From assembly GCA_964539925.1 (NCBI GenBank), contig CAZILB010000002.1, forward strand, positions 178 to 64,177: a stretch of 64,000 bases of DNA, written 5' to 3'. Position 1 is the first letter of the stretch. Each line of letters starts with the position of its first letter. The DNA is from an uncultured Syntrophobacter sp. (GTDB lineage: Bacteria; Desulfobacterota; Binatia; UBA9968). Position numbers and translations under genes: made by a program. The notes under the pieces are model-generated. The model saw only the letters and a list, made by a program, of their open reading frames with translations, was not told where the DNA came from and searched no databases. Shown here one piece after another: positions 12,805-64,000 of this stretch.

Positions 12805-12880
12805 TGGCTCCCCGGGAGGGACTCGAACCCCCGACCAATTGGTTAACAGCCAACTGCTCTACCGACTGAGCTACCGGGGA
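12805..12880 (-). tRNA. tRNA-Asn (anticodon GTT)
   Basis: Read on the minus strand: UCCCCGGUAGCUCAGUCGGUAGAGCAGUUGGCUGUUAACCAAUUGGUCGGGGGUUCGAGUCCCUCCCGGGGAGCCA. It has a 7-bp acceptor stem, D-loop AGUCGGUAGA, anticodon loop CUGUUAA, T-loop UUCGAGU and an encoded CCA end. Confidence 0.85.
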
Positions 12881-24962: not shown

Positions 24963-26798
24963 ATGACGCAAACCACAATCACCCGGCGTGACGACATCCG
25001 CAACGTCGCCATCATCGCCCACGTCGATCACGGCAAGACCACGCTCGTCGACGGTCTGCTGCGCCAGAGCGGTATCTTCCGCGTCAACGAACAGGTGGCC
25101 GAGCGGATCATGGACTCCATGGACTTGGAGCGCGAGCGCGGCATCACCATCATGGCGAAAAACACTTCGATTCGGTACGGCGAGGTGAAAATCAATATCG
25201 TCGACACGCCGGGCCACGCCGATTTCGGCGGCGAAGTGGAACGCACGCTGGCGATGGTGGACGGAGTCATGCTGCTGGTGGACGCCTCCGAAGGGCCATT
25301 GCCGCAAACCCGCTTCGTTTTGAAAAAAGCTCTGGAAGCCAAGCTGCCGCCGATCGTGTGCATCAACAAGATCGACCGCCCCGATGCCCGCGTCGCCGCG
25401 GTGCTCGACGAGATCTACGATCTGTTCATCGATCTCGACGCCACCGAGGAGCAACTTGATTTTCCGGTCGTCTACACCAATGCCCGTGCCGGCACGGCCA
25501 CCCTCGATCTCAAACAGCCGGGGGAAAACCTCAAACCGATGTTCGAGTTGATCGTCAACAAGTCGCCCGGTCCCGTGATCGATCCCGCGGTGCCGACGCA
25601 ATTTCAGGCCAACAATCTCGACTATAACGACTACGTCGGTAGGCTCGCCATCGGACGCGTCAAAAACGGCACGCTGGCTCCGGGACACTACACCCTGTGC
25701 CGCGTCGATGGCGGCCAACAAGCGATCAAAGTTTCTCAAGTGTACGGCTGGGTGGGACTCAAACGGGTGGAAGTTCCGTCGGCGGCAGCCGGCGACATCG
25801 CCGCCGTGGCCGGTATCGAGGACATCGGCATCGGCGACACGATCACCGACCGCGAACAGCCGCTGCCGCTGCCGCCGTTGCGCATCGACGAGCCGACCAT
25901 CGCCATGCTTTTCTGCGCCAACAATTCGCCCTGGTCCGGCCGCGAAGGCGAGTTCGTCACCTCGCGCAAGCTGCGCGAACGGCTGCTGTTTGAACAGCGC
26001 CGCAATGTCAGCCTGCGCGTCGAAGACACCGAGCAACCGGATATTTTGCAAGTGACCGGCCGCGGCGAGTTCGCCCTCGCCATCGTCATTGAGACCATGC
26101 GGCGCGAAGGTTACGAGCTCATGGTGTCCAAGCCCACGGTGGTCACGCGCTCGGTCGAAGGCGCGACCCATGAACCGATGGAACTGCTCGTCGTCGACAT
26201 CCCGGAGGATTTTATCGGCGTCGTATCGCAGCTTTTGGCCGTGCGCAAAGCCAAGATGACCAAGATGACCCATGCCGGGTCGAGCCGAGTGCGCCTGGAA
26301 TTCGCCGTGCCGTCGCGCGGACTCATCGGCTTTCGCTCGCGTTTTCTCACCGACACCCGCGGCACGGGTATTATGAACGCGCTGTTCAACGGTTGGGCGC
26401 CCTGGCAAGGCACCATTCAATCGCGCACCAACGGCGCCATGGTCGCCGACCGCGAAGGCCAGACGACCCCTTACGCTGTGTTTCATCTGCAGGAACGCGG
26501 CGTGCTATTCATCGCCCCCGGGACGAGAGTCTACGAGGGCATGATCGTCGGCGAGTATTCGCGCAACAACGATCTAAACGTCAATGTCTGCCGGGAAAAG
26601 AAACTCACCAACATCCGCGCCGCGGGCAAAGACGAAAACATTATCATCTCGCCGCACCGCGAAATGGGTCTGGAAGAAGGCATCGAATGGGTCGCCGACG
26701 AGGAATTGGTGGAAGTGACCCCGCAGTCAATTCGCCTGCGCAAGAAAATCCTCAAGCAATCCGAACGCCCGCGCCGCCGCCAGGACGACGACGCCTAG
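24963..26798 (+). CDS. typA: translational GTPase TypA/BipA
   Basis: G1 [10 protein letters not shown]3 DTPGHADF, G4 NKID, then EF-G-like domains. 611 aa from [27 protein letters not shown]. Confidence 0.95.
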
Positions 26799-58165: not shown

Positions 58166-58477
58166 ATGGCGCGCGGACATCACGATGTCGGCGGTCTCCC
58201 CGGAGCGGGGCAGATCGATCAAACGCAACATCAGCTTTCCGATTGGGAGATTCTTGCCGACGCCGTCAACCAGGCACTCGGCGCTCGCGGCATCAAGCGC
58301 ACCGACGAAATGCGCCGGGCCCGCGAAGAAATGGACTCCGCAGCCTACCGCGATATGAGTTATTATGAGCGCTGGATTGCCAGCATCGAGACTATCCTGA
58401 TTGAAAAGAACATCCTGACCAGGGAAGAGATCGACCGCAGGCTCGCCGAATTCGAATCCAAGTGGGGCGAGCCGTGA
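58166..58477 (+). CDS. nitrile hydratase / thiocyanate hydrolase beta-subunit, N-terminal-half homologue (split beta, part 1)
   Basis: MARGHHDVGGLPGAG parallels the MNGxHDxGG start of NHase beta. DEMRRAREEMDSAAYRDMSYYERWIASIETILIEKNILTREEIDRR aligns to the beta N-domain helix bundle. GGAGG RBS 7 bp upstream. The ORF ends where a normal beta subunit would continue. Confidence 0.75.
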   Translation: MARGHHDVGGLPGAGQIDQTQHQLSDWEILADAVNQALGARGIKRTDEMRRAREEMDSAAYRDMSYYERWIASIETILIEKNILTREEIDRRLAEFESKWGEP

Positions 58478-58800
58478 GCCCGGCCGGCGTTAAATTCAAA
58501 CCGGGCGACCGGGTGAGAGTCAAGTTCGAGGACCGCCCGGGCCACATCCGCACGCCCTGGTACATTCGCGGCAAGTCCGGATGGATCGAGCGGGTGTACG
58601 GCGAGTTCTTAAACCCCGAGGAACTGGCTTACGGCCGCGACGGGCTGCCCAAGAGGACGCTTTACCTTGTTGCTTTTCATCAGAGCGATGTTTGGGGGCC
58701 AACGGCGGCATCGAACGATAAAGTTCTCGTCGACATCTATGAGCACTGGCTTGATCCCGTCGATGCAAAAGGAGACCGAGATGAACGACCCATTAACTGA
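58474..58800 (+). CDS. nitrile hydratase / thiocyanate hydrolase beta-subunit, C-terminal-half homologue (split beta, part 2)
   Basis: FKPGDRVRVKFEDRPGHIRTPWYIRGKSGWIERVYG...VWGP...VLVDIYEHWLDPV matches the NHase beta C-terminal beta-barrel nearly motif for motif. Probable GTG start overlapping the part-1 TGA (GTGA). An in-frame ATG at 58462 is the alternative. Confidence 0.75.
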   Translation: MSPAGVKFKPGDRVRVKFEDRPGHIRTPWYIRGKSGWIERVYGEFLNPEELAYGRDGLPKRTLYLVAFHQSDVWGPTAASNDKVLVDIYEHWLDPVDAKGDRDERPIN

Positions 58801-59407
58801 ATCTCACGGCCACGATCATCCCAGGCATGAGTTGAGTCACTTTGCCAAGCGGATTTACGCGATCCGCGACCTGCTCGTCGAAAAGGGCGTCATTAGCGAA
58901 AAGGACATCCAATGCCAGATCGAATACCAGGAGGCGCGCTCGCCGGCCAACGGCGCCAAACTGGTCGCGCGCGCCTGGGTCGATGGGGCTTTCAAAAAGC
59001 GCCTTATCGACGATCCGAAGGCAGCCTGCTCCGAAATGGGCATCGACGCCACCGCGATCAACGAATTCGTAGTTCTAGAGAACACGGAAAAGCTTCGCCA
59101 CATGGTGGTTTGCACTTTGTGTTCCTGCTACCCTCGCCCGATCCTGGGACGCCCGCCCGACTGGTATAAAAGCTTCAACTATCGCCAGCGTGCGGTCGTC
59201 GATCCGCGCGGCGTCATGCGCGAGTTCGGACTCGATCTGTCCGGCGGCGTGGAAGTGCGGGTGCATGACAGTACCGCCGATATCCGATACTTGGTCTTGC
59301 CGCTTCGCCCCAAGGGCACAGAGGGTTGGAGCGAAGCGGATCTGGCCAAACTCGTGACCCGCGACAGCATGATCGGTGTCACGGACCCTTTATCTGAACT
59401 CCCTTGA
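58781..59407 (+). CDS. nitrile hydratase alpha-subunit homologue, cobalt-type metal site (VCTLCSCY)
   Basis: HMVVCTLCSCYPRPILG contains the Cys-x-Leu-Cys-Ser-Cys claw. Thr and Tyr at the flanking positions mark the Co-type. Flanking KAWVD..FKKRLI and GWSEADLAKLVTRDSMIG match NHase alpha throughout. Start at MNDPLTE, overlapping part-2 by 20 bp. Confidence 0.85.
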   Translation: MNDPLTESHGHDHPRHELSHFAKRIYAIRDLLVEKGVISEKDIQCQIEYQEARSPANGAKLVARAWVDGAFKKRLIDDPKAACSEMGIDATAINEFVVLENTEKLRHMVVCTLCSCYPRPILGRPPDWYKSFNYRQRAVVDPRGVMREFGLDLSGGVEVRVHDSTADIRYLVLPLRPKGTEGWSEADLAKLVTRDSMIGVTDPLSELP

Positions 59408-60775: not shown

Positions 60776-61654
60776 TCACCGTGCCGGCATCGCGGGCGAT
60801 GCCGCTCCCTCGCACATATCGACGAAGACGCCATCGGGACTCGAGCATTGATAGCGGCCGTGGCGACACGATGCAATGAGCGCAACCCGCCGCTCGCCCT
60901 CGCTCGGTTCGCTGATCACGCGTTCGCGCATCTCGGGGTCGGTTTCGCGCAACCCCACGAGATCATTTTTCACGGCGTCCACGCTCTCCACCTGGAAGCC
61001 GACATGCTCCAGGCCCGGGCGGTCAATGCCGGCGCCTTCGAAGTCGCTCATCTTCCACGGCGCGATGATCAGCGTCATCTTGCCGTCGGTGAGGTAAAAA
61101 TTCGGATCTTCGAGCGCCTTGTCCGCTTCCTTGAGATCGAACAGGTCGCGATAGAACTCCGCGATCGCCGCAGGGTTCATCACCCGAAGTTTCAGATGAT
61201 GGATGCGCCGCGGCGGCTCACGCGGCTGATCCGCCTGCGGCGAACCGGGTCGAACCGCATAGACATCGCGACGGTTGGACATGCCTTCTTGCGTGAGATC
61301 GAAATAATTGCCTTCGGGATCGTGGGCGCCGTAGGTCGCAAACGGCCGGTTCGAAGGCCGTTTAAGCACCCCCACCTCCGGATACCTTTTTTTGATGCGC
61401 GCGATCGCCTCGTTGACGTCGTCAACGTCGACGCCGAAGTGGTGCAACCCCGGCACATAACCGGGTTTTCTGCCGATGACGGTCACGCCGACGTAGCCGT
61501 CGCTGAGGCTCACCGCATAGTTGGTGCGAATCGCTTTCTGTTCCTCCTCGGAGCCCGGCTTCGATCGCTTCATACCGAAAACCGACTCGTAAAACTTCGC
61601 CTCGCGCACAAAATTTTCGCTGACGATGGCGAAGTGTTGAATCCGGGTGAGCAT
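60776..61654 (-). CDS. VOC-family (glyoxalase/bleomycin-resistance/extradiol-dioxygenase fold) two-domain protein
   Basis: Two tandem beta-alpha-beta-beta-beta modules, each opening with the VOC signature (IQHFAIVSENF ... HHFGVDVDD; IHHLKLRVMNP ... EHVGFQVES). RBS GGGAGG before the ATG. Confidence 0.7.
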   Translation of the reverse strand: MLTRIQHFAIVSENFVREAKFYESVFGMKRSKPGSEEEQKAIRTNYAVSLSDGYVGVTVIGRKPGYVPGLHHFGVDVDDVNEAIARIKKRYPEVGVLKRPSNRPFATYGAHDPEGNYFDLTQEGMSNRRDVYAVRPGSPQADQPREPPRRIHHLKLRVMNPAAIAEFYRDLFDLKEADKALEDPNFYLTDGKMTLIIAPWKMSDFEGAGIDRPGLEHVGFQVESVDAVKNDLVGLRETDPEMRERVISEPSEGERRVALIASCRHGRYQCSSPDGVFVDMCEGAASPAMPAR

Positions 61655-61664
61655 AGGCCTCCCT

Positions 61665-61790
61665 TCGGTCGGCTTGGTTCAAGCCGTTCAAATCGTTCAA
61701 GTCGTTCAAACCGTTGACCGCTTAAAACCCGGTTGGTTTGAACCTCCGAGACGGCTTGAACGTTTTGAACTTTTTGAACGTCTTGAACAG
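61665..61790. repeat. 9-bp-periodic hexamer array in inverted arrangement: (GTTCAAnnn)x4-5 ... (TTGAACnnn)x4-5
   Basis: The + strand reads GGTTCAAgccGTTCAAatcGTTCAAgtcGTTCAAaccGTTGACc - 27 nt - gTTTGAACctccgagacggcTTGAACgttTTGAACtttTTGAACgtcTTGAACag. It lies between the SBP stop (61794) and the VOC start (61654), and the two arms are reverse complements of each other. Confidence 0.8.
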
Positions 61791-61793
61791 TGA

Positions 61794-62771
61794 CTATTTC
61801 CCCGCGAGCTTCTTGAAGAATCCTTCCTTTTCGAGCTCGTCCAAAACACTCTCGTCCACGTATCTTTCGAGTTTCGGATCCAGCTTGGGATTTTCCTTGG
61901 CGATCAGCTCGATGGTATTGTGCATACCTGCGGGAGAGACCCGTATCGGAAAAGAAAACTGGGGCGCAAAAAACTTATAGGTCTCTGCCAGCGCTTTGAC
62001 ATTATCCTGCTTCAGTCTTCGCCGGAGAACCGAGATTCCTTTTTCTTGGTCGGTCATAAACTGGTAGGTCGCTTCGGCGTAGGCCATCATGAAGCGTTTC
62101 ACGGCATTGCGATTCTGCGCCAGGAAAGAGCGGCGCACCGCGACTGCAGACATGGGATACTCGGCCGACTTAAATTCGCTCAAATTGCCAAGCTCGTTCA
62201 TTCCCATCCGCAGCGCCTCGCCCAGCTCCGGATGAGAAAGCACCGTGGCGTCGAGCGCCTTGGTGCTAAGCGCGACCAGCCGGGTCGCCCCGCCCCCGGC
62301 TTGCAGGACAGTGACTTTCTCCCGTGGTATTTTCCACTCCCGAAGCAACAGAGTCACGGCGAGATCGTTGGCGCCGCCGAACCCCACGATGCCGATTTTC
62401 TTTCCAATGAGGTCCGCCGGCTGGCGAATTTCTTTGACGCTCACAAAACTGAACGGAAATTTGTTCAACGATCCCCCGACCATGACGATGTCGGCGCCGC
62501 GCATAACGGCCCGAATATGGCCGGCCGCATCGACATGGGCAAATTGGATGCTATCGCCGACCAGGGCCTGTATCTGGCGGGCCGTGCCGGGAACCAAAAC
62601 CGTTTCGCCGTCAATGCCGTATTTTTTTAGCAGCCCCAAATCTTTGGCGGCCCACATCGACACCTGAAATCCCGCAAAGCCGGCGTATCCCATCATAAAG
62701 CGTTCCTGAGCAGCGGCGGCGGTTGGCAGGACGAGGAGAATCGCCGCAATACCCATCAATCGGCTCAACAT
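61794..62771 (-). CDS. ABC transporter substrate-binding protein (NMT1-like, NitT/TauT family), orphan
   Basis: Signal peptide MLSRLMGIAAILLVLPTAAAAQ. Type-II PBP sequence similar in architecture to the SBP at 38619-39644. No permease or ATPase gene adjacent. Confidence 0.7.
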   Translation of the reverse strand: MLSRLMGIAAILLVLPTAAAAQERFMMGYAGFAGFQVSMWAAKDLGLLKKYGIDGETVLVPGTARQIQALVGDSIQFAHVDAAGHIRAVMRGADIVMVGGSLNKFPFSFVSVKEIRQPADLIGKKIGIVGFGGANDLAVTLLLREWKIPREKVTVLQAGGGATRLVALSTKALDATVLSHPELGEALRMGMNELGNLSEFKSAEYPMSAVAVRRSFLAQNRNAVKRFMMAYAEATYQFMTDQEKGISVLRRRLKQDNVKALAETYKFFAPQFSFPIRVSPAGMHNTIELIAKENPKLDPKLERYVDESVLDELEKEGFFKKLAGK

Positions 62772-62819
62772 GGTTTCGGCCCCCCTTTTTCTTGAAATGT
62801 GCCTCGTTTTAAAAATCAA

Positions 62820-64000
62820 TTAGGTTTCGCGTATCGTTCGATTCCGGCTTTCGATCTCTTTGACATGTTGCTTGCAGTCCTTCTCGGCGGGAATCAGCTG
62901 GGAAATCACGATGAGGTGCGGGAAGTGGTTCACGGAAGGTTCTCTAAGCACATGCTGCGGATCGCGTCCGTCGCGGACGTCCTTGACAGCGTTTGCCAGC
63001 AATTTTCGCGCGGCGACGATCGCTTTGTCCGAAGAGACCAGATGCTCTGCGGCGCGGTCCTGAGTCGCTCCCTGGGATTCCGTTGCGAAGGCGTCATGGG
63101 CTTGGAAGTTGAACCCCATGCCGGTGAAAGTCTGGGTTTTCATCGACTCACGGTCCTGCTGGTATCGATTCGCGGCGTTGCGTGTCAAACGATAATCCAC
63201 CGTCAGATCGGCGCGGTTCTTCTCGCGCAGCTCCGCCGCCAGCGCTCTTTCCCGGCTAAACAGGAACACGTACTTCCAGTGGTTCGTGTCGTCGATGGGC
63301 ACATGCCAGTGCACGGCGTAGCCTTCGCCGACGGTCGAACCGCCGAACGCAGACAGATTGGGCATGACGAAATTCGTCACTCGCAGATAGCGCTTGTCCG
63401 ATCCCGAGTCCCGGAGCGTATAGATTCGAAGGCCAAAATCCGTCAGTTCCACTTCGATCCTCGGCGCCACATCCACGGCAAGCAACGCGTTGTCCGTGGC
63501 GTTGCCGCCGCGCACGATGCGCGGCGGCAACGCCACTTGCGCCTCGGAAAGAAATTGATGCAAAAAAGACAGGTGGACGGGATCGATGTTGCCTTCGTTG
63601 CCCTGCAAGAAATTGCACTGGTAAAAGATCTTGGTGACCGCGCGTTGCTCGGCCGGCAGCGCGAGAAACTCGTAGTTCGGCAAGAGCGGCGGCTCGCCCG
63701 GCCCCATGTAGGTAAATAGGACACCGCCTGCTTCGAGGCAAGGGTGAGCGCGATGGCGAATTGCGTGGCGGTTGGCGCCGCCGCCGGGTTCTCCCGGCTG
63801 TTCGATCACGCAGCCCGTAACATCGTAAAGCCAGCCGTGATAGAGGCAGCGAAGTCCGCCGTTCTCGACTCGGCCGTAACTCAAGTCGGTCCCGCGATGC
63901 GAACAATGGAGCCCGAGCAAACCCGGCCGTCCCTGATCGTCGCGAAAAAGAACCAGGTCCTCACCCATGATCCGCACCGTCAATGGCGCACCGCCCTCCG
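62820..64000 (-). CDS. Rieske [2Fe-2S] non-heme-iron oxygenase alpha subunit (5'-truncated by the window edge)
   Basis: Rieske motif CSHRG-x17-CLYHGW. Catalytic-domain iron ligands in NEGNIDPVHLSFLH and a downstream Asp. The frame is open to position 64000, so the true N-terminus lies outside the window. Confidence 0.75.
   Translation of the reverse strand, partial: EGGAPLTVRIMGEDLVLFRDDQGRPGLLGLHCSHRGTDLSYGRVENGGLRCLYHGWLYDVTGCVIEQPGEPGGGANRHAIRHRAHPCLEAGGVLFTYMGPGEPPLLPNYEFLALPAEQRAVTKIFYQCNFLQGNEGNIDPVHLSFLHQFLSEAQVALPPRIVRGGNATDNALLAVDVAPRIEVELTDFGLRIYTLRDSGSDKRYLRVTNFVMPNLSAFGGSTVGEGYAVHWHVPIDDTNHWKYVFLFSRERALAAELREKNRADLTVDYRLTRNAANRYQQDRESMKTQTFTGMGFNFQAHDAFATESQGATQDRAAEHLVSSDKAIVAARKLLANAVKDVRDGRDPQHVLREPSVNHFPHLIVISQLIPAEKDCKQHVKEIESRNRTIRET

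Follow-up and report, generated by a model that had tools for sequence, protein, structure and literature searches.

A GTTCAA foldback between substrate-binding-protein and VOC genes belongs to a repeat family that is dispersed in Binatia and shares its arms with PF05635 gene cassettes

Results

The inverted GTTCAA array that lies between a substrate-binding-protein gene and a VOC-family gene in the window (the whole 64-kb stretch of DNA analyzed here) is one copy of a foldback repeat family scattered across Binatia-type genomes. A copy of this family consists of two inverted arrays of three to five GTTC(A/C)A hexamers, with spacers of 1 to 3 nt, arranged around a variable loop. The window copy has its arms and one inner junction in common with cassettes that enclose a PF05635 gene. 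The explanation that we favor, and consider likely, is that the array is an ORF-less copy of the dispersed foldback, derived from an IVS-like cassette, which is cotranscribed and probably serves as an RNase III-type processing or stability hairpin.

The array and its surroundings

Direct reading of the plus strand placed GTTCAA units at 61677, 61686, 61695, and 61704, followed by a degenerate fifth unit, GTTGAC, at 61713, and TTGAAC units at 61756, 61765, 61774, and 61783, with a lone in-phase TTGAAC at 61738. Four perfect GTTCAA units (61677-61709) stand opposite four TTGAAC units (61756-61788) at 9-nt spacing; the sequence-only reading had counted about five units per arm, and there are four perfect ones, each side having one more unit that is degenerate or isolated. 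An inverted-repeat search returned arms of 38 nt (61677-61714 and 61751-61788) that are 84% complementary, and both arrays were called by Tandem Repeats Finder with a period of 9. The pattern GTTCAAN3GTTCAA, with at most one mismatch, matched seven times in the window, six of them within the array, where 0.29 matches were expected; seven or more were reached in 0 of 100 shuffles. A relaxed scan of the 64-kb window found no second GTTCMA array of period 7 to 9, which leaves a single window copy. These results bear out the earlier claims that the inverted array is real and that no similar array stands elsewhere in the 64 kb. The element and its neighbors are laid out as follows.

62820-63983+, minus strand: Rieske/LigXa-like oxygenase gene
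61794..62819, minus strand: upstream gene, for an NMT1/THI5-like substrate-binding protein (SBP); it ends in a stop codon 5 nt ahead of the array (4 bp in the sequence-only reading)
61744..61788, minus strand: 5' arm in transcript sense, GTTCAAgac GTTCAAaaa GTTCAAaac GTTCAAgcc, then the inner junction gtctcggag
61719..61743, minus strand: loop region, holding the lone in-phase hexamer (plus-strand TTGAAC, 61738-61743) and forming a small inner hairpin in the fold
61677..61718, plus strand: 3' arm of the transcript, GTTCAAgcc GTTCAAatc GTTCAAgtc GTTCAAacc and the degenerate GTTGAC
61655..61676, minus strand: conserved 3' flank caagccgaccgaagggaggcct, with the VOC Shine-Dalgarno sequence inside it; outside the stem in the fold and kept in most orthologous VOC-upstream spacers
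60776..61654, minus strand: downstream gene, for a two-domain VOC/glyoxalase-fold protein

In the transcript (minus-strand) sense, the RNA was folded at -58.6 kcal/mol (z = -5.95) into an imperfect hairpin of about 40 bp, and the plus-strand RNA at -54.7 kcal/mol (z = -5.11). The folds in both orientations agree with the earlier expectation that the long imperfect palindrome would form an RNA hairpin inside a Rieske-SBP-VOC transcript, all three genes being on the minus strand. Read in transcript sense, the array stops 22 nt short of the VOC ATG and 13 nt, not the 11 bp given earlier, short of GGGAGG, and GGGAGG is left unpaired. When the array was searched against Rfam in gathering and E-value modes, only subthreshold matches to generic miRNA-precursor hairpins were returned.

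A role that had been suggested from the letters, that of an intrinsic terminator or attenuator separating the SBP gene from the VOC gene, would suit such a very stable hairpin (-58.6 kcal/mol) placed directly after a stop codon. However, the hallmark of an intrinsic terminator is a GC-rich stem immediately followed by a U-run, whereas the stem in the window is AU-rich with internal loops and has no U-tract 3' of it on the transcript strand; a scan found neither a terminator-like nor a promoter-like site. Relatives of the element also lie between genes that need to be coexpressed, such as lexA-imuA-imuB, and we regard a terminator or attenuator as improbable.

The closest named homologues of the VOC protein come from Candidatus Binatia, with 85 to 89% identity. 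Four independent Logan short-read contigs carry an identical VOC gene, and all four stop at window positions 61705-61710, inside the array, which is the usual behavior of a repeat in short-read assembly; the array also breaks short-read assemblies in this way.

Several other features of the region were recorded. A nitrile-hydratase-like alpha/beta gene set, whose alpha subunit has a further match to the Frankia_peptide (NHLP-type precursor) model, lies at window positions 58166-59407. This set is followed by a gene for a DnaJ-domain protein, just downstream of the VOC gene and on the opposite strand, and the nitrile-hydratase-like/DnaJ block is retained in a close relative (L124). Besides a tRNA at 12808-12880, the only one that Rfam gave at its gathering threshold, ARAGORN called a 90-nt tRNA-Gly(gcc) at 26347-26436 of the window; this second call may be spurious or atypical.

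Dispersal of the foldback in Binatia-type genomes

A scan for three units, with one genome per species, returned at least 119 stretches. About 49 of the matches listed came from MAGs labeled Binatia, delta proteobacterium, Deltaproteobacteria, or Thermodesulfobacteriota, and a single MAG often contributed more than one contig. Dispersal is established in this way for Binatia MAGs as a group, the source genome being represented by the 64-kb window with its one copy. In the listed loci, the architecture is three to five GTTCAA units with R-H-C spacers, a loop of 6 to 90 nt, and then three to five TTGAAC units, with c-GTTC(A/c)A-R-H-C as the unit consensus; solo arrays and the TTGAAC...GTTCAA order are also present, and the loop of dispersed copies sometimes holds a nested GC-rich palindrome.

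Among the listed loci, 66 elements were found in short gaps between long ORFs, typically a few nucleotides after a stop codon and before a ribosome-binding site. Where both neighboring genes could be called among the matches listed, 40 pairs were codirectional, 10 convergent, and 3 divergent. The neighboring genes of the listed loci matched 96 and 69 Pfam families, none of them enriched. The sequence-only reading had taken the element to be specific to its locus, and had named dozens of copies at intergenic sites genome-wide as the observation that would make it a generic repeat instead. At the level of the lineage, this is what was found: copies stand at dozens of unrelated intergenic sites of Binatia-type MAGs, beside genes of about 100 families.

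Contigs gathered by their VOC protein tell the same story. These VOC-protein-ascertained loci (378 kb) contained a dozen additional arrays away from the VOC site. In the relative whose VOC protein is 98% identical to that of the window (L124), two additional arrays lie 3.5 to 4.2 kb upstream of the VOC gene, just past the point that corresponds to the window end. Furthermore, a contig with the orthologous locus (L127) and a pattern-found contig (L072) belong to one Binatia MAG.

A REP hairpin that follows a binding-protein gene (malE-malF, hisJ-hisQ) stabilizes the upstream message. A link of the present family to binding-protein genes, in the manner of the malE REP, was considered and set aside, because no family was enriched among 68 upstream genes of the listed loci. 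A resemblance of the nonamer GTTCAARNC to the tRNA T-loop (G53-C61) was also dropped, since the variants of 7 to 8 nt do not fit it.

Other repeats were met in the same contigs. The GC-rich palindrome cccccacc..cctcccccgcgacgcgggggagg..ggtggggg is a second dispersed repeat, often nested in the loops of hexamer foldbacks and absent from the window. It occurs at L114 2990-3060, 4190-4250, and 5400-5460, in L034 and L103, and in the VOC-upstream spacers of L152, L159, L179, L181, L196, L200, and L212. A variant double unit, GTTCAA-ycgcttcgctyc-GTTCAA (on the other strand TTGAAC-ggaGCGAAGCgn-TTGAAC), was seen at L060 564-799 and L117 153-230 and in L114, L119, and L200. This double unit, which the window copy does not have, contains GCGAAGC, a very stable DNA mini-hairpin. 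Small GIY-YIG genes (about 95 to 100 aa) adjoin the Rieske gene at L128 1980-2540 and L133 150-760, with another hairpin repeat, acaccggcctgcgccggtgtgacg, on both sides of them; this repeat is also absent from the window.

A separate dispersed family of period-9 TTGAAC arrays was observed in Chitinophagaceae MAGs (L006, L009, L014, L027, L042, L106, and L108). These arrays have a conserved 5' flank, ccaacctt TTGAACgca TTGAACgta TTGAAC..., and adjacent period-9 arrays built of other units (ggtttgaga, gctggatag); no PF05635 gene was found near them.

The orthologous site upstream of the VOC gene

The foldback is nearly always present in the 82 VOC-upstream spacers that were compared, and the palindromic architecture noted in the window is retained in most of them. 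GTTCAA arrays of period 9 were found in 29 of the 82 spacers, GTTCCA/TGGAAC arrays of period 9 in 20, and GTTCAA arrays with spacers of 1 to 2 nt (period 7 to 8) in 25; the remaining class, without an array or with a one-unit remnant, accounts for 8/82. In the nearest relative (L124/L125), one arm has four units and the other has two. Since the period ranges from 7 to 9 and the number of units varies among orthologues, a strict 9-bp period is not conserved; what is kept is the pair of inverted hexamer arrays.

The two hexamer types pair largely with themselves (AA, 129 paired units; CC, 29; mismatched, 15). The type of element does not go with VOC similarity: two loci whose VOC coding sequences are 99.2% identical (L153 and L161) differ in type, and A and C types are found together within one genome. 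Replacement, recombination, or chimeric contigs are therefore as likely a source of the type differences as compensatory change in situ. L153 and L161 have the right end of the element in common but not its left arm, its loop, or the end of the upstream gene, a pattern that points to a recombination junction within the element or to a chimeric contig joined there. Concerted compensatory evolution in situ as the sole source of GTTCCA/TGGAAC copies was weakened as a candidate by the same two observations, the lack of a link between type and VOC similarity and the co-occurrence of types.

To compare hexamers with spacers, the 12 loci with 4+4 period-9 arms were aligned in 66 pairs. Mean identities were as follows.

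Hexamer positions: 0.935
Spacer positions: 0.520
VOC codon position 3: 0.535
VOC codon positions 1+2: 0.906

Judged by these sequence identities, the hexamers are constrained or homogenized, being conserved like nonsynonymous sites, and the spacers drift neutrally. A hairpin alone would not require such a constraint on the hexamer sequence; this sequence-specific constraint points to a trans-acting factor.

Sequence-specific constraint and the perfect regularity of the hexamers in the window are what one would expect of the first proposal made from the letters, a cooperative multisite operator that belongs to the Rieske-SBP-VOC locus alone and whose 9-bp spacing is strict for functional reasons. 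Tandem-site operators (the MetJ metbox, omega heptad arrays) have fixed spacing and a promoter position and are restricted to a regulon. Here, in contrast, the element occurs at dozens of unrelated loci with neighbors of about 100 families, and it lies after a stop codon inside an operon, where no promoter-like site was found by the scan. At the orthologous site itself, the period can be 7, 8, or 9, the hexamer can be of the A type or the C type (GTTCCA), unit number varies, and 8/82 spacers lack the element. The proposal did not survive this comparison, and we consider an operator of this kind very improbable. It would be a misreading to treat the array as a site where a regulator of the aromatic-degradation operon binds; the array is a generic genomic repeat.

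Cassettes enclosing a PF05635 gene

PF05635 ("23S rRNA intervening sequence protein") surfaced in the Pfam counts of array neighbors. At two pattern-found loci (L005 and L040), a PF05635 gene lies exactly between four GTTCAA units and four TTGAAC units. Because pattern-found loci carry an ascertainment bias, a protein search was run. It returned about 8,000 homologues, the best of which was "four helix bundle protein [Candidatus Binatia bacterium]" (NCBIfam TIGR02436). In all 32 of the 32 places returned for four of these proteins, three to four units lie upstream and two to four downstream of the PF05635 gene. These 32 places represent nine distinct flank pairs, in the interval between lexA and the imuA-like gene or after imuB, and unit number varies among cassettes that encode an identical protein. 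Cassettes of 536 to 621 nt fold with their arms paired across the ORF, and the stem runs on through GUUUAGGAG, the Shine-Dalgarno region of the ORF. A position in the SOS mutagenesis cluster (lexA/imuA-like or directly after imuB) was found in every Binatia place sampled; the cassettes located there include the following.

L214, 1145-1765
L224, 1138-1705
L234, 1440-1975
L005, 4386-4907
L040, 1930-2453

PF05635 genes with GTTYAA nonamer arrays around them were also found in a Brocadia genome, in a Nitrospirota MAG, and on a low-GC contig.

The window copy is without the ORF, and no PF05635 gene was found anywhere in the window. It aligns to both cassette ends with about 85% identity, the ORF appearing as one long gap; either orientation fits, and which way round it stands with respect to the cassette is ambiguous, the element being a palindrome. 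A profile built from the arms of the cassettes matched the window only at 61788-61744 (E = 1.7e-13, full length with the junction) and 61677-61715 (E = 4.9e-12). As a test of family membership, this profile was rejected, since it also matches unrelated coding-type GTTCAA-N3 repeats. Because the arm profile is not family specific, the junction nGTYTMGGA was used as a more specific marker. It follows 8 of 13 cassette arrays, one of the two window arrays, and none of 242 arrays from other genomes or viruses; it follows 14 of 188 ORF-less Binatia arrays, and that only this minority of ORF-less copies keeps the cassette junction speaks against derivation from the cassette.

Viral contigs were rejected as relatives: they contain many four-unit GTTCAA-N3 arrays, but the spacers are of the CTG/CAG type, not one of the 128 is paired with an inverted array, and PF05635 genes were not found in the vicinity. 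Period-9 GTTCAA repeats are not special per se; the defining marks of the Binatia family are its spacer bias, the inverted pairing, the intergenic position, and the junction. These shared characters also bear on whether the window array is a product of local replication slippage, or a chance palindrome, with no relatives. Short tandem units do slip easily, and unit number differs among near-identical strains, but the architecture, the R-H-C spacer bias, and the junction motif recur at many loci and MAGs, and a local origin of this kind has a negligible probability.

Constraint at the RNA or the DNA level

If the sense RNA were under selection, G.U mismatches would be expected to exceed A.C mismatches in the arms. 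No such excess was observed. The VOC-site orthologues had 63 G.U and 65 A.C wobble-type mismatches, and dispersed copies, oriented by their neighboring genes, had 15 G.U and 14 A.C, with 29 purine-purine and 31 pyrimidine-pyrimidine mismatches. An RNA-level strand signature was set aside on account of these symmetric counts in dispersed copies; the excess of purine-purine mismatches in the VOC-site orthologues is probably due to shared ancestry. Selection on the mRNA accounts for the symmetric mismatches no better, and perhaps less well, than a strand-symmetric constraint on the DNA does. The sense strand was slightly more stable on average in the folds.

These statistics bring in the possibility that the element acts at the DNA level only, as a selfish or maintained foldback (MITE- or REPIN-like) that has no role in SBP-VOC expression and whose hexamers bind a trans-acting protein, for which the four-helix-bundle protein is the candidate. 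Strand symmetry favors it, as do hexamers conserved like nonsynonymous sites next to neutral spacers, the polymorphism in unit number and the deletions among close relatives, the arrays that bracket PF05635 genes, and neighboring genes drawn from every functional class. Against it, copies are overwhelmingly within transcription units or at their 3' ends and rarely between divergent genes, and the VOC-site copy persists over lineages with 81 to 98% VOC protein identity. Neither a target-site duplication nor a recognized transposase was seen, and PF05635 proteins have no demonstrated DNA-transaction activity. In particular, no target-site duplication was visible when an empty site (L169) was compared with filled sites (L187 and the window), a comparison in which slippage deletions could mimic empty sites. 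On balance, we judge a purely DNA-level element to be unlikely.

Discussion

Proposed origin and role of the window copy

The reading that we favor, a cotranscribed, ORF-less derivative of an IVS-like cassette, can be put as a series of steps. The window copy would be an internal-deletion (miniature) derivative of a PF05635 IVS-like cassette. Within a Rieske-SBP-VOC message, it would be transcribed together with the genes, forming a stem of about 40 bp with small internal loops right after the SBP stop codon and leaving the VOC ribosome-binding site accessible. On the analogy of IVS stems, which RNase III cuts, and of REP hairpins that follow binding-protein genes, such a stem is probably a site of double-strand-RNA processing or of 3'-end protection, or is simply tolerated. 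Such a site, again on this analogy, could make the stability of the SBP segment of the message independent of that of the VOC segment. A trans-acting factor that recognizes GTTCMA may maintain or spread the family.

A more tentative proposal, which in our view is rather unlikely, names this factor. The four-helix-bundle protein (S23p/PF05635, Avd-like) would be the partner of the GTTC(A/C)A arrays, a homopentamer reading four to five hexamers; gene and arms together would be a REPtron-like unit from which ORF-less mini-copies are seeded in Binatia, and 23S IVSs would be one insertion niche of this broader class of elements. If true, this would provide a function for the protein family and an origin for the IVSs, both of which have been unexplained since the 1990s.

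The Binatia repeat family appears to be undescribed. A literature search on PF05635 genes with such arrays found no paper linking the two, a result that is limited to the searchable literature and is not proof of novelty, and nothing relevant was found on GTTCAA repeats, Binatia REPs, or STRR hairpins.

Comparison with known systems

Among dispersed arrays, the cyanobacterial STRR are lineage-specific, intergenic tandem arrays of heptamers. The Binatia family resembles them in being composed of dispersed, lineage-specific, intergenic tandem arrays of a 7- to 9-nt unit. It differs in the unit itself, and neither inverted pairing nor a link to PF05635 is part of the definition of STRR, which are compared here by their general description. 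Eukaryotic Foldback elements have inverted repeats that are themselves built of short tandem repeats, and the inverted arms of the Binatia elements are likewise made of short tandem repeats. Like MITEs, the Binatia elements are short and noncoding, have long terminal inverted repeats, and include apparent internal-deletion derivatives of an ORF-carrying form; unlike in MITEs, no target-site duplication was seen between filled and empty sites, and the partner ORF is not a known transposase.

A closer comparison is with the REP, REPIN, and BIME elements associated with RAYT transposases (PMC3733652, PMC3116915). The Binatia family is similarly lineage specific and hairpin forming and is of similar length (about 100 to 130 nt for a REPIN). 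It has many intergenic copies, at the level of Binatia MAGs mostly in or after transcription units, which persist at orthologous sites, and it includes a single-copy gene flanked by repeats in a REPtron-like layout. The defining characters of REPs are a GTAG or CGTC tag and a link to a RAYT transposase (PMC3733652). The window element, unlike these, has no terminal GTAG/CGTC tag at its outer ends (...tcact/GTTCAA and TTGAAC/caagcc), and CGTC occurs in it only within the inner junction gccgtctcgg. Moreover, a Binatia arm is three to five tandem hexamers with spacers of 1 to 3 nt and not a single palindrome of 20 to 40 bp, and the repeat-flanked gene encodes a four-helix-bundle PF05635 protein and not an IS200/IS605-type Y1 transposase.

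The intervening sequences of 23S rRNA offer a further comparison. S23p/PF05635 ORFs occur in the 23S rRNA IVSs of Coxiella, Leptospira, and Xanthomonas (PMC4990558). The Coxiella IVS is a selfish element with an S23p ORF, whose terminal inverted repeats pair into a 28-bp stem that is cut by RNase III; tandem heptamers of variable number lie in its 5' part, and the Shine-Dalgarno sequence is inside the stem (PMC4990558). The Binatia elements differ from such IVSs in lying in the spacers of protein-coding operons and not in a 23S rRNA helix (9, 25, or 45), in having arms that are regular GTTCMA hexamer arrays, and in the many ORF-less copies, the window copy being without the PF05635 ORF that its full-length relatives carry. 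In other respects the two are alike. Terminal inverted repeats form a long enclosing stem in the window copy and in the cassettes; the full-length Binatia cassettes carry an ORF of the S23p family in the loop of that stem; the stem region of the cassettes contains short tandem repeats of variable number and the Shine-Dalgarno sequence of the ORF; and suspicion that they are mobile or selfish has for a long time attached to both. In this family, a repeat dispersed between genes is linked to the S23p/four-helix-bundle gene that rRNA intervening sequences carry, and through this link the old proposal that IVSs are mobile and that their ORF serves mobility (PMC4990558) becomes directly testable.
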